Source: a virus
Virus record (IMG/VR): IMGVR_UViG_3300031853_000538
DNA: 16,504 bases
Reading direction: 5' to 3' (one strand)
In this document: positions 4,338 through 16,504 of the stretch, one piece after another
How positions within the stretch are numbered: the stretch's first letter is position 1
Layout: each line of letters begins with the position of its first letter
Program-made: the position numbers and the translations under genes
The notes under the pieces: model-generated
What the model was told of the DNA's origin: nothing
What the model saw: the letters and a program-made list of their open reading frames with translations, nothing else
Database searches by the model: none

Positions 4338-4529
4338 ATGAGTTCATTTTATGGGAATGGTACAGTTACAATAATAAGGGGAGTTACTCCTGGCGAAATA
4401 TCGGCAAAAATTTAGGATGCAAAAAATCATGTAATTTTTTCAAAAGTTCAACCAACAGTTCAAAAAGCTGGGGATATTTGGGTTGTTATTGATGAATTTG
4501 AAGATAAAAAAGAAAATAATAATGGATAA
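4338..4529 (+). CDS. Hypothetical small protein (63 aa) containing one in-frame TAG sense codon
   Basis: SD AAGGAGGG sits at 4326-4333 and the ATG at 4338. The frame has an in-frame TAG at 4413-4415 and terminates at TAA 4527-4529. With TAG read as sense it is MSSFYGNGTVTIIRGVTPGEISAKI[TAG]DAKNHVIFSKVQPTVQKAGDIWVVIDEFEDKKENNNG. The frame-2 ORF 4307..4492 in the track overlaps it and lacks an RBS. The position immediately upstream of the TMP is where tail assembly chaperones normally sit, but I see no sequence support for that. Confidence 0.4.
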
Positions 4530-4560
4530 GTAATTATTTATTAAGGAGTTAAAAGGAATT

Positions 4561-7500
4561 ATGGCAAATCAAATTAAATATGATGTTAAATTTAATGTTG
4601 ATACTGGCTCGCTTAATCAATTAAAATCTTCATTACAATAGATAAAAAAATTAGATATAAAAGATGTAATGAAAATTAATAATAGTGATATGTCAGCCGC
4701 ACGTGATACATTAAGATCAGTACAAGAAGATGCAGAAAAAGTAGAAAAAGCTTTGAGCCGAGCTTTCAATACTAAATTAAACACTCTTAATATTGCTACT
4801 TTTAATAGAGAGTTATCTTCAGCAAATTTAAGTATTGATAAAGTTCAACAATCTTTTAGTAGAATTGGAGTAACTGGCCAGGCAGCGTTTAATAATCTTG
4901 CTACTGATATTTTGAATACTAATGTTCAATTAAGACAAAGTAGCAAGTTATTGGATGATATGGCAGTATCAATGGGTAATACTATTAAATGGGGTATTAC
5001 TTCTAGTATCTTTAATACCATGACAAGCTCTATTCAAAAAGCGTATTATTATGCTAAAGACTTGGATAGATCTTTAACTGATATTAGGATAGTTACTGGT
5101 GACAGCGCAAATTAGATGTAGAGATTTGCAAAAGTTGCAAATACTGCAGCTGGCGATCTTGGTAGATCTACTCTTGATTATACGAAAGCCGCATTAACTT
5201 TTTATCAACAGGGTTTAGGTCAGCAAGATGTTCAAGCTAGAACTGAAGCTACTTTAAAAGCTGAAAATATTACTGGCATTGGATAGGAAATGGCAGATTA
5301 TTTAACTGCTGTTTGGAATGGCTTTAATGTTGGGGCGCAAGATGCCGAGAAATATGTTGATAAACTTGCGGCTGTTGCTGACAGTACCGCATCTAACATG
5401 GGGTAGTTAGCAACTGGTATTAGTAAAGTAGCATCTGCCGCAAATAACGTTGGTGTCAATATTGATCAATTAACTGGTCAAATTGCTACTGTTATTGCAA
5501 CAACCAGACAAGCGCCAGAATCTGTTGGTGTTGCTTTTAGAACTATTTATGCTAGAATTAATGATATTAAAGCAGGGACGGATGAGGCATAGATTAGTTT
5601 AGGTAATTATTCTGGAAAGATGGCCGCGTTAGGATTTAATGTTCTTGATGCTACTGGTCATTTAAGAGATACCGGTTAGGTTATTGAAGAAATTGGTGAA
5701 AGATGGCAATCTTTGACTAAAGAGCAACAAATTAATCTTGCTCAAGTAATGGCAGGTCAAAGACAATATAGCAATTTAATTTCTCTTTTTGATAACTGGG
5801 ATAAATATTTACAATCTGTTAATACGTCTTTAAATTCTCAAGGCACATTAAATGAAAAAAATGATAGGTATTTAGAGAGCCTTCAAGCACATATGCAATA
5901 GCTTAGTACAGAAGCTGAACGTACCTATGATATTTTATTTGATGAAGAGGCTGTTAAAGGTTGGGTTGATGCTTTTGACGGTGCTTTAAATATTTTTAAT
6001 GATTTTATTGAAGGTATTGGTGGTGGAAATACTGCTTTAGCTTACTTTGGATCATTAATTGCAGGTATTTTTAATAAACAAATTGTTCAAGCGGTACAAG
6101 GAGCGGCTGCAGAAATTGATAGGTTAAAAGCTAATCTTGGATCTGTTGCAGCAAAACAAGAGATTATTGATAAAATTAAATCTGGTTTACAAGTTACTTA
6201 TGCTGGTCAAGGACAACAACTTGGTAACAATGCTTTAACTTTGCAAGCTTAGGCTGCATAGAAAACTTTATCTGTTCAACAGGGTTTGACAGCAGAACAA
6301 CAAAAGCAATCAGTATAGATTCAAAAACAAATTGGATTAACTCAACAAAATATTGATGATTTATAGCAAAAACAAAAAACCGCATAGAATATTGTAAAAG
6401 CCTTAGAACAAGAATAGGCTATTCAAGGAAGAAGTGCGGCTCTTTTGTAGAATGATAGAATACAACTTCAAAATAGTTATGATATTAATCAAAAGAGTTT
6501 AATGGCTATGCAAGCTATGGAAGGAAGTTTTGAAAAACTTTCTTCAGGAGCTTTATCTTATCAATAGCATTGGAATACTCAACTTAGCTTATTAGATCAA
6601 ATTAATAATGAAACAGATAATTTAAGAGACGTTTGGATTGCAGCTGGATTAGAAGAAAGTGAATTTGATAGAAATTTAACAATAATAAAATAGGGCATTG
6701 CAGATTCAAATACAGAAACAGAAAAATTTAAAAATGCTTGGGAATCTATAAAAAATGTTACTCAAAATTATGCTAATTCTCAAAAAGCAGATTTAGAAAA
6801 AATAGATCAATATTTATTAAATATTGGAATAGATACTTCTAAATTGACAGAAGAGGAAAAAAAGAGATTAGCAATTTTGTTATAGCAAAATGATGCTTTA
6901 GCAGAACAAGGAAAACATACTTTAAATCTTCAAAATATTGTTCGAGGTCTTTCTTCAGCTGGGCAAATTTTAACCTCTTGGGCGGGGGCTGCAAAAACTT
7001 TTGGCGATTAGTTAGCAACTGCATAGCAAAAATCTAATGCATTAGTTTCTGGGCTTCAAGGAACTATAATGGGAGTAGGTTCATTATTTGGTCCTATTGG
7101 TATGGGGATTGCTACTTTAACTAATGGCGTAATTTCATTTTTTAAAGAAGCGACTCCAATGGGAGACTGGTTAGAAGAAAAATTTAAAACTACTCAAGAA
7201 AGAATTGATGATATTAATAATGCTCTTAATAAAGTAGGAGATAATGATAGAACAAAAAATGCTCAAATTAGTAGTTTAGAAGCATTAGTTGATGAATATG
7301 ATAAATTATCAAGTAAGGCAGGAGAATATGGAGTAAATTTAGACACTTTATCTCAAGAAGAACAAGATAGATATCATTAGATTACAAATGCTTTTGCAGA
7401 GTATAATAGTGCTGTTATAGCTGGCTATGATGACCAGGGTAACGCCATTGTAAAAGGACAAGACGCATTAAGATAGACTATTGAAGTATTAAGACAAGCA

Positions 7501-14421: not shown

Positions 14422-14583
14422 ATGGATAGGAATGAAAAAAAGATGATTGAATATAAATGGAAAACTGGAACATATGGATTAAATGATATGATTAAATTAG
14501 TAAAAAAAGGAATTTTAAATTAGGCAGAATTTTTTTATATTACAAGATATAATTTTCAGGGAGTAAATAATAAGCAAGGTTAA
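14422..14583 (+). CDS. Small XkdX-like phage protein (53 aa) with one in-frame TAG sense codon
   Basis: SD AAGGAG sits at 14411-14416 and the ATG at 14422. The frame has an in-frame TAG at 14521-14523 and a TAA stop at 14581-14583. The product is MDRNEKKMIEYKWKTGTYGLNDMIKLVKKGILN[TAG]AEFFYITRYNFQGVNNKQG. The pattern W..G.Y....V..V..G.I...E...IT recalls the small XkdX family found next to tail-fibre genes in Firmicutes phages. This is recalled from memory, not searched. Confidence 0.35.
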
Positions 14584-14649
14584 ATTAGATTTGAAAATTT
14601 AAAAATTTTATGTTATTATATAATAAGGAAATACAAGGAGGATTCATTG

Positions 14650-16504
14650 ATGAGCGTAAGTGAAAAAGTCCTTGATGCTATTGAATTATTAGCTGCAAAT
14701 TCAGTTGAAAAAGCTGGATATGATAGAACAATTCAAGCTCAGATTTTATCATGTTAGGATGCTACTATTGGAAAATATAGATGTCGATATCAAGATGCTA
14801 TATTTTATGCGTATTCTAATTCAACGGATATTAGTTATTCTGCTCGTTCTTATGTTTATATATTAATTCCAGGAAATGATATGAGTAGATAGAAAACCAT
14901 TCTTGGTACTACTAAAAAATTAGGAATTAATTATATATCTGCCGCATAGGGGAAATAGGCTTATAATATTATAGGTTCTAATGGAGTTGTGTCTAGTGAT
15001 ATTTATTATTTAGATACTAATTTAAATAGTTATTCATATATTATATATGATAGTGACAGAGATCAAAATACAGTTGATATAGATGTAGATTCATTAGAAA
15101 GATATATAAAATAGTCTTCGTCTTTAATTGCGGGAGCCACGTTTAAAACAAATATTCCATCAAATCATCAATCAAATGGTCATTATGGAATTACTTTTTA
15201 TTTAGAGTTTATAGATAACACTTCCTCAAATAAAAATGTTATTCGATCATATACTATTGATTAGGATAATATGGTAGATAATCCTTATAGATTGATTTAT
15301 CCAACAGAGCAATACCAAATATTTGATATTGATGGAGCGAATTTTGTTAAATTAAAATCAATTTAGATTTTTTGTGAATAGTTTCCAGAATCCGAAGGAA
15401 CAAGTGAATAGTTATTAACTCTTGGAGATATTTAGATTTCTGAATTAGAAATTTTTGGAGCAAATAGATTAACTGAAGAATAGTTGAATGGTGTTGCTAT
15501 AACATTTTTTACTCCACAGGGAAATTTTTTCCCGCAAGGAAGCTTGTCAAATGCTTATAGGGATATAATTGCTCAAGTTAGAGTTAAGGGTAAATTAGTA
15601 TCAAGTGAACAAAGACTTTCATTTTATTGGGGAAGTGAAAATGTTGGTATTTTATCTAGTAGTGAAAATTATAATAAATATTTAGGACGTGGTTGGAAAT
15701 GTTTAAATGATAAAAATATTGTAGCACCAGCAACTATAACAACAGATCCTGTAATTGAATGGACACCTGGTACTGATACATATAGATTAAAAATTAATGA
15801 AGCAACCGCAAAAAATAATAGGTTTAAAGTTGCAGTTGTTTATGATGAAAATATTATTACTAGAGAAATAAATATTCAAAATTTAGCAAAAAATATTACT
15901 TCTTTATCTATCGTTTCTAATAGTGGAGTTAAATTTTATCATGATATTGGACATCCTATTTTAACTTGTTTAGTAAATGAACAAGAAAAATTAAATTATA
16001 CCTATGCATGGGCAAAAGAAGATAATACAGGCAATTTTATTCAATTACAAACAACAACAACAGAAAATGATGCATATAATCAAGCTATCGCGGATTTCTC
16101 TGAATTACAATAGGCTATTGAAAATGGGACGAAATTTCAAAATGAAGAAAGTGAAGAACTAGCAAGATTAACTTCTTTAATTAATAGTTTTAATTTTATT
16201 ACTAGAGTAGAAAAAAATAAACTTTATGATGTACAAATTAGAGATATTACGAAATTTGCTAATTTTAAATGTTCTGTATATAATGAAAGAAATGTTTATT
16301 TAGGAACCACTTCTATTACTTTAATCAATTCTTTACAAACTGAAGATTTATATTCATTAGTAATTAATAATGGGACTGTTGGCTTTAAATATAATGAAAA
16401 TGGTGTTGCCCCAAATAATAAAAGTTTAGATATGCCACAAATTATTGAAAGTTTATCTTTTACTATTTATGATAATTTAGGTAATGCTATAGATAATGAT
16501 ATAA
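14650..16504 (+). CDS. Large tail or baseplate protein in the distal-tail/tail-associated position after the TMP; 3'-truncated at the window end; 12 in-frame TAG sense codons
   Basis: The strong SD CAAGGAGG (14635-14642) precedes the ATG at 14650. The frame is continuous in frame 1 to the window end (618 or more codons), with 12 TAG and no TAA or TGA. The track ORF 15484..16113 is a fragment of it. The segment ending '...LGDI[TAG]ISELEIFGA' resembles the C-terminal strand of galactose-binding-like (F5/8 type C / CBM32) domains, which suggests a carbohydrate-binding insertion. That resemblance is a weak inference. Confidence 0.65.

Follow-up and report, generated by a model that had tools for sequence, protein, structure and literature searches.

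The question raised by the viral DNA analysed here, a stretch of 16,504 nt from IMG/VR record IMGVR_UViG_3300031853_000538 (hereafter the window, with positions counted on the whole stretch), is what the codon TAG means in the genes of a phage tail. Its largest gene, for a tape-measure protein (TMP) of 3,267 residues (4561..14364, plus strand, the ATG at 4561 preceded by an AGGAG site), carries 87 in-frame TAG codons and ends in TAA. A previous interpretation made from the letters alone, which we call the sequence-only reading, held that these codons are decoded and do not reflect pseudogenisation, and took Gln to be the residue inserted. Our analysis bears out the first of these claims and not the second. 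With a probability of roughly 0.8, we consider that the window comes from a siphovirus-type phage of the gut or rumen with a genome of ~130-145 kb and probably a low-GC Bacillota host, in which UAG has been reassigned from stop to Glu and is used in late genes only.

Recounting the TAG codons reproduced the earlier numbers exactly. Measured between stops, the TMP frame (4534..14364, +) has 3,276 codons, 87 of them TAG and none TAA or TGA, before the TAA at its end; the frame of the downstream tail gene (14584..16504) has 12 TAG, all of them downstream of the ATG at 14650, and two small plus-strand genes of 63 residues (4338..4529, with its TAG at 4413-4415) and 53 residues (14422..14583) have one each and end in TAA. 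No gene contains an in-frame TGA, Trp is always TGG, and all complete genes end in TAA, as had also been noted for the TAG-bearing genes. The TMP retains an intact PF10145 domain (PhageMin_Tail; phage minor tail or TP901-type TMP; Pfam, 1e-25) at residues 195-399 (5143-5757), and this domain is annotated in all 120 of the matches listed among the 334 database homologues of the protein.

Related loci and contigs, mainly from IMG/VR, were gathered by searches with the TMP and with a vault-like protein encoded in the window, and are given L-numbers here. The vault-like protein led to 47 loci in IMG/VR, a large number of them on contigs 130-190 kb long, and the TMP N-terminal domain to 80 further loci. 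TMPs rich in in-frame TAG were found in 43 distinct sequences of 2,000-3,400 codons, at 12-31 TAG per 1,000. Because homologous TMP frames are rich in TAG across these relatives, the recoding is genuine and belongs to the lineage as a whole, and TAG is here a sense codon that is decoded, not a sign of decay. Together with the PF10145 match, these homologues also show that the long frame of the window did not open by chance. A pseudogenised tail module, or TAG codons introduced by assembly or sequencing errors, might have been suspected from the window itself, which contains neither a tRNA gene nor a release-factor gene. That explanation would have to accommodate 101 TAG against 0 TAA or TGA in the 4,004 codons of the late genes, the same pattern with conserved domains in more than 40 independent assemblies, 182 TAG-TAG pairs kept between relatives, and the presence of suppressor tRNAs in related genomes; we regard it as effectively refuted and give it next to no probability.

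To identify the residue, 65 full TMPs were aligned at the DNA level with TAG masked as X, the 21 relatives with standard-code TMPs (0 or 1 TAG) serving as the reference. The best-fitting residue was Glu in 33 of 33 sequences of the window's clade and Gln in all nine members of a separate clade within the family (L098, L100, L103, L104, L106, L109, L111, L116 and L118). For the window TMP alone, the log-likelihood of Glu exceeds that of Gln by 11.1 over 68 columns. At columns conserved in at least 90% of the standard-code TMPs, TAG codons of the window's clade fell on Glu 33 times (at nine of the ten conserved-Glu columns), on Asp three times and on Gln twice; those of the Gln clade fell on Gln 25 times, on Lys four times and never on Glu. 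This reversed result makes the Gln clade an internal control. A single codon illustrates the point: codon 282 of the window TMP (5404..5406) is TAG, and all 21 standard-code homologues have Glu there. The alignments thus place TAG of the window's clade at Glu positions, and the tests that separate the two residues all contradict the earlier assignment of Gln for this clade and return Gln for the other clade.

The choice of DNA-level comparison was dictated by the state of the protein databases. Among PF10145 database homologues, Glu occupies most of the columns at which the window TMP has TAG (at codon 282, Glu in 50 sequence clusters and Gln in nine), and the Gln residues at TAG columns come mainly from close relatives. 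For two database proteins, all 30 residues that differ from the standard-code translation proved to be Gln at TAG codons. Such residues are TAG translated with NCBI table 15, so database homologues could not be taken at face value and the comparison was moved to the nucleotide sequences. The alignment that the sequence-only reading had proposed, of a table-15 translation to TP901-family TMPs, would be misleading for the same reason, as public entries already carry Gln at TAG. In an initial codon-aware alignment of the window TMP with seven relatives, TAG being written as X, the residue facing TAG was Glu at twice the frequency of Gln. A first all-versus-all tally, in which Lys and Gln appeared opposite TAG, was discarded as a product of antisense frames of the vault-like gene, and the effect vanished when non-overlapping open reading frames (ORFs) were used.

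Codon content gives the same answer. CAA and CAG together amount to 49-69 per 1,000 codons in TMPs of the window's clade, 31-38 in the Gln clade and 64 in the standard-code sequences; the window TMP itself, at 65 Gln codons per 1,000, shows no depletion relative to its standard-code homologues. In the Gln clade, CAA+CAG alone is half the normal content, and the addition of TAG restores it to ~54-65. The complementary figures for GAA+GAG are 65-85 in the window's clade (somewhat low), 76-103 in the Gln clade and 90 in the standard-code set. The published code-15 phage phAss-1 (136 kb, OQ749652) was tried as an external Gln control and set aside, its TMP of 3,149 residues being too divergent for the column test, although its composition alone supports Gln (44 Gln codons, 35 TAG and 92 Glu codons per 1,000).

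The signal extends to genes other than the TMP. Over 736 TAG positions in 98 such ORFs of the window's clade, Glu is the best residue and Gln is worse by 62 log-likelihood units; against standard-code homologues, conserved positions carrying TAG are Glu 34 times, Asp seven times and Gln never, and in the Gln clade they are Gln 34 times, Lys seven times and Glu once. Endolysins provide an instance at an active-site residue. In FlgJ, the Glu of the motif ALETGWG is the catalytic acid of the GH73 family. The GH73 domains of the L005, L007 and L034 endolysins have the motif CL-TAG-TGYG, which aligns with the FlgJ motif (PDB 2zyc) such that TAG lies opposite this Glu; PDB 3k3t is FlgJ with Ala at that position, and L099, another member of the window's clade, reads CLETGYG, with an ordinary Glu codon at the GH73 position.

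A UAG=Glu code calls for a tRNA of the tRNA-Glu type with a CUA anticodon (tRNA-CUA). No tRNA-CUA was detected within 10 kb of the TMP or vault-like gene in the window's nearest relatives. Two contigs with TMPs of the window's clade, L135 (the same as L073) and L136 (the same as L062), were reached through a protein that adjoins the tRNA array; their arrays hold 20-24 tRNAs with one tRNA-CUA each (L135:20322-20394; L136:18408-18480), and a pattern derived from both located the same tRNA-CUA type in more viral contigs. Two other routes to the arrays gave nothing new: tRNAs were too divergent for shared k-mers, and a conserved tRNA-Ser pattern matched only two contigs already known. In these tRNAs positions 1 and 72 are paired but are not U-A (C1-G72 or G1-U72, and G1-C72 in the type represented by L139, L140 and L142), and the 9-nt D loop AAGYGGTYTAAG and 4-nt variable loop match those of the phage tRNA-Glu(UUC). 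In L140 the variable loops of tRNA-CUA and tRNA-Glu(UUC) are identical (AGAC), and in L139, L140, L142 and L144 the tRNA-CUA directly follows tRNA-Glu(UUC) and tRNA-Glu(CUC). Suppressors of the Gln clade (L023, L045) are of another kind, with an unpaired 1-72, G73, a D arm of the form GCCAAGCGG..AAGGC and a UAUGC variable loop, as in tRNA-Gln(UUG). None of the features of tRNA-Gln derivation (a weak or unpaired 1-72, G73, a short D loop, a 5-nt variable loop) was seen in the suppressors of the window's clade. Related genomes of that clade thus carry a tRNA-CUA of tRNA-Glu-like build, apparently a paralogue of tRNA-Glu(UUC) from the same phages. The absence of residue 47 is an identity element for GluRS, and the amidotransferase GatCAB requires U1-A72 and a small D loop; taken with these rules, the features of the Glu-type tRNA make charging with Glu and escape from amidation plausible. 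As a separate observation, some tRNA-CUA genes (L047 20504-20600; L050 12442-12532; one in phAss-1) have an insertion of ~20 nt after the anticodon arm (CCCTCTGAAGG...), perhaps an intron or else a variable arm of unusual length.

Several observations weigh against Glu and have to be set beside this evidence. The assignment rests on alignments and tRNA features, all of them computational, and the tRNA-CUA evidence comes from relatives within the clade other than the window's nearest ones (L002/L054). Compared with the Gln signal in the control clade, that for Glu is more mixed: between members of the Glu clade that are 60-85% identical, the codons opposite TAG are GAA/GAG in 120 cases, CAA/CAG in 60 and AAA in 34, and in the three closest pairs GAR and CAR are nearly equal (13 versus 11). 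Codon 447 of the window TMP is a TAG opposite mostly Gln, many of which may themselves be TAG read as Gln. The 12 TAG codons of the window's tail gene lie at poorly conserved positions that do not discriminate between residues, and one of them is opposite Phe in 10 of 11 homologues. Finally, the published relative phAss-1 was reported as TAG=Gln (PMC10607447). Frequent mutation of CAG to TAG at sites that tolerate the change could account for this mixing, as could an earlier stage in which TAG meant Gln, or a partly ambiguous reading as Glu and Gln.

Part of this list could be claimed for genetic code 15, in which TAG is read as Gln by a suppressor derived from tRNA-Gln, as in crAss-like, Lak and Phassvirus phages. 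No other reassignment of TAG has been described in phages (PMC9523058, PMC10607447, bioRxiv 10.1101/2021.08.26.457843), a clade within this TMP family reads TAG as Gln, and codon 447 and the second place of CAA/CAG among close relatives agree with it. It is nevertheless quite improbable for the window's clade, as it fails on the conserved columns (Glu over Gln by 33 to 2 in the TMP and 34 to 0 in other genes, with the opposite outcome in the Gln clade), predicts a depletion of Gln codons that is not seen, would turn the endolysin residue aligned with the catalytic Glu of FlgJ into Gln, and calls for tRNA-Gln features that Gln-clade suppressors have and these suppressors do not; many of the database Gln residues at TAG columns are, in addition, the work of translation software. 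An ambiguous decoding, in which partial amidation of a tRNA-CUA carrying Glu, or charging by two enzymes, would leave proteins with a mixture of Glu and Gln, is unlikely but has more in its favour. Gln opposite TAG exceeds the expectation from true Glu codons (~15% versus ~10%), and Glu codons plus TAG come to slightly more than the standard Glu content. In most Bacillota, Gln-tRNA is made through Glu-tRNA, so the two identities lie one enzymatic step apart. Against a mixture, TAG is used where Glu is invariant and at the site corresponding to the catalytic Glu of FlgJ, at which a high proportion of Gln would carry a cost, conserved Gln columns almost never carry TAG, and the suppressor lacks both the U1-A72 pair and the small D loop that GatCAB needs. 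We see only a very slight chance that TAG specifies Asp, Lys, Ser or some other residue, or that near-cognate host tRNAs suppress it in place of a dedicated suppressor: Asp and Lys are the next commonest residues opposite TAG, but the likelihoods of Asp, Lys and Ser are far below that of Glu, conserved Asp columns are hit three to seven times against 33-34 for Glu, and leaky read-through of 87 TAG codons in one frame is not feasible. Glu therefore remains our preferred meaning for TAG in the window's clade.

Which genes use the codon is the second part of the question. Four minus-strand genes of the window and its first plus-strand gene (4042..4323, 93 residues) make up an early-type set of 1,210 codons with no TAG, where ~30 would be expected at the late-gene density; the probability of finding none is 4e-14 per codon, or 2e-15 when calculated from TAG/(TAG+GAA+GAG) = 0.27 and the 107 Glu codons of the set. 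The gene at 4042-4323 has only five Glu codons, so its own lack of TAG is not significant. The sequence-only reading had described this TAG-free set and its expectation correctly, but counted five or six minus-strand genes where there are four. It had also confined TAG to late genes after the model of Borges et al., which the window and the lysis genes of relatives uphold, and had tied the split to a switch of strand and promoter, which the same lysis genes contradict. In relatives, L007 among them, the lysis genes sit on the same strand within the block of early-type genes that also contains the vault-like gene. Four assignments in that block are confirmed by Pfam, among them an RNA ligase and a GyrB-like gene (0 TAG each) and an SPFH/flotillin-like gene (one TAG in its stop-to-stop frame), and others were made by reading translations: a metallophosphatase, an HD hydrolase, a phosphoesterase, an RNase H and a GyrA-like gene (0 TAG each), and a kinase with two TAG from stop to stop and none after its first ATG. 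Between these genes, the Phage_holin_1 holin has one TAG and the endolysin of 765 residues (GH73 glucosaminidase, Amidase_2, two PG_binding_1 and SH3_3 domains) has 17; endolysins of relatives have 13-17 each. Since TAG-bearing holin and endolysin genes lie between TAG-free early and replication genes on one strand, the split follows gene class, not strand or promoter, and the strand switch at the TAG boundary of the window is a local coincidence. As judged from these gene distributions, TAG is restricted to late genes (tail, holin and endolysin). The choice of Gln codon also changes with class in the window (CAA 8 and CAG 28 in early genes, CAA 210 and CAG 29 in late genes), while GAA/GAG usage is alike in both; the flip may mean that the early block has an origin of its own, or that CAG is avoided where a C-to-T change would create TAG.

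This distribution fits the late-gene lock proposed by Borges et al. On such a scheme, early, replication and host-takeover genes, being free of TAG, would be translated at once by the standard machinery of the host, and the phage tRNA array would supply a single tRNA with a CUA anticodon, similar to tRNA-Glu(UUC). GluRS would charge this tRNA with Glu, and GatCAB would be unable to amidate it for want of U1-A72 and because of its enlarged D loop. As the tRNA-CUA builds up, TAG would come to be read as Glu and the tape-measure and tail genes, together with the holin and endolysin in relatives, would be unlocked, TAA being kept as the stop codon throughout. Competition from RF1 would have to be almost abolished late in infection: with 87 TAG codons in one frame, even a read-through of 99% at each would leave only ~42% of products full-length, and UAG can by then cause next to no termination. 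The arrangement of TAG codons and tRNA-CUA may in this way serve as a timer of late-gene expression.

The host is probably a low-GC Bacillota, as the sequence-only reading had supposed for a Firmicutes-type host. This follows from TMP relatives in Enterococcus and Psychrobacillus phages, from the Phage_holin_1 family of the holin, and from suppressor arrays of the Glu type in contigs binned with Clostridia and Bacillota metagenome-assembled genomes. In INPHARED, the relatives of the TMP domain, each ~30% identical, are phAss-1 and a set of siphoviruses of Enterococcus and Psychrobacillus, 134-142 kb in size, that use the standard code; the latter are Enterococcus phages EF1, EF5, VRE9_1-4 and H1 and Psychrobacillus phage Perkons, which resemble the window's lineage in the TMP N-terminus, in genome size and in having Bacillota hosts. 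No stop-codon recoding is reported for EF1 in the phAss-1 paper (PMC10607447). A search of INPHARED for near-identity to the window gave no match.

Within the TMP family the meaning of stop codons varies further. About ten relatives (L065, L066, L067, L069, L071, L078, L094, L096, L108 and L129) have TMPs, at ~9500-18000 on their contigs, that are open only if TGA is a sense codon, with 8-22 TGA each and a depletion of TGG, so that phages of code-4-like type stand next to the TAG-recoded ones. Like the Gln clade, they fall on a different branch of the TMP tree from the window's clade; both groups share with it the TMP family, similar contig sizes where contigs are long, and recoding of the TMP and the genes next to it, and differ from it in codon meaning (TAG on Gln columns, or TGA as sense). 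The TMP of L131 (9551-17959) has 22 in-frame TAG codons that face hydrophobic residues, Trp and Tyr among them, instead of Glu or Gln, and a low TGG content (4.6 versus 7.7 per 1,000), which may represent a third meaning of TAG; a single TAG in each of L028 and L031 is likewise opposite Trp in six of eight homologues. Nested in the Glu clade are L068, with a standard-code TMP and a GC content of 39%, and L082, with five TAG only, a placement that suggests loss or recent gain of recoding inside the clade. In the more distant relative L040, a single in-frame TAG in a gene at 464-1342 is opposite Gln in 17 of 17 homologues, consistent with TAG=Gln in its lineage or with a mis-set start. A sense role for TAA, under which several loci gave their longest frames, was rejected, as these were standard genes continued past their TAA into flanks free of TAG and TGA.

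The remaining features of the window fall into the two blocks already described. On the minus strand are a gene of 73 residues (172..393, ending in TAA) with no assigned function and copies 93-95% identical in L001 and L025; a gene of 68 residues (521..727) with weak likeness to the T7 gp5.9 RecBCD inhibitor (PF25708 at 3.9e-5, just under the cut-off; PHROG 6234 at 4.7e-7); a homologue, 830 residues long, of the eukaryotic major vault protein (819..3311; Pfam MVP_shoulder 3e-23; PDB major vault protein 1e-10) with 81 Glu codons and a terminator-like hairpin on its 3' side (787..812, minus strand); and an HD-type phosphohydrolase-like gene of 141 residues (3398..3823; PHROG 990, 4e-7), all of them free of TAG. 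The vault homologue is kept at full length in 47 phage contigs (at ~10001-12500 in L002-L048), adjoins an SPFH/flotillin-like gene in relatives, and in INPHARED matches only the huge phages LR756500, LR756501 and LR756503, at ~37% identity. An AT-rich divergent intergenic region (3824..4041) separates the early block from the tail block. The window matches L001, a contig from ENA, at 100% identity across the early genes and 4042-4323, but at only 81% in the 63-residue gene and 44% where the TMP begins (window 3824-4560 versus L001 1-760), an abrupt drop that marks a recombination boundary at the entry to the tail module. A promoter scan was uninformative in the AT-rich DNA of the window (87 sites against 86 expected). 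Within the TMP, a low-complexity stretch rich in Gly, Lys and Ser (GGNSGGSSPSGKSGGGGGGRKGGGGGGKKGGGGKGKKGSGSGK) lies at ~11110-11240 (residues 2185-2225), and directly 3' of its stop is a hairpin with a 14-bp stem (14374..14407) that is terminator-like on both strands. The final gene encodes a distal tail protein (14650..16504, +; likely start at the ATG at 14650 with GGAGGA upstream), of which the window contains the N-terminal 618 residues, and which continues past the window end. Its N-terminus resembles the gene that follows the TMP in phAss-1 and in L021/L024, and the C-terminus of the window TMP is 42% identical to that of phAss-1.

The lineage has much in common with known code-15 phages, namely crAss-like phages, Lak megaphages, the gemstone clades of Borges et al. 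and Phassvirus phAss-1. All of them infect hosts with the standard code yet give a stop codon a new meaning. Their TAG codons gather in genes for structure and lysis while early genes avoid them, a phage tRNA-CUA lies inside a tRNA array (here in relatives of the window), and TAA is kept as stop; phAss-1 in particular has a TMP of ~3,150 residues followed by a homologous tail gene. The difference lies in the residue, as code-15 phages insert Gln and the window's clade would insert Glu, with a suppressor of tRNA-Glu and not tRNA-Gln architecture. The key survey of recoded phages assumes Gln for TAG, and a search of the full-text literature, of incomplete coverage, found no report of TAG-to-Glu in phages, only TAG-to-Gln and TGA-to-Trp.

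Nuclear codes of eukaryotes offer the nearest precedent. To our knowledge, UAG read as Glu is known only from these codes (NCBI tables 30 and 31). It arises there in peritrich ciliates (table 30) and Blastocrithidia (table 31) through a tRNA-Glu with a changed anticodon. Those codes are cellular and genome-wide and reassign UAA as well, in contrast to the reassignment proposed here, which concerns UAG only, in the late genes of a virus whose host keeps UAG as a stop; the two are certainly independent in origin.

We therefore think it likely, though slightly less so than the Glu assignment itself, that a Bacillota gut and rumen phage lineage uses a UAG=Glu code, with a suppressor derived from tRNA-Glu, that is undescribed in bacteria and phages; that a single TMP family contains four or five code states (standard, UAG=Gln, UAG=Glu, UGA sense and possibly UAG=Trp or aromatic in L131); that the meaning of a freed stop codon is accordingly labile; and that pipelines using table 15 mistranslate such phages. 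Work on recoded phages treats all TAG-recoded phages as code 15, and gene callers and public protein databases hard-code Gln. For the window's clade, table 15 would give wrong residues, including the endolysin residue aligned with the FlgJ catalytic Glu. If the Glu assignment is true, thousands of deposited proteins would contain systematic Glu-to-Gln errors, which would affect annotation, structure prediction and enzyme mining. A natural amber suppressor that inserts Glu and works in Bacillota would also be a useful tool. Related clades that give different meanings to one freed stop codon would constitute a natural system for the study of how codon meaning is gained and changed, and would allow the proposed role of GluRS and GatCAB to be probed.

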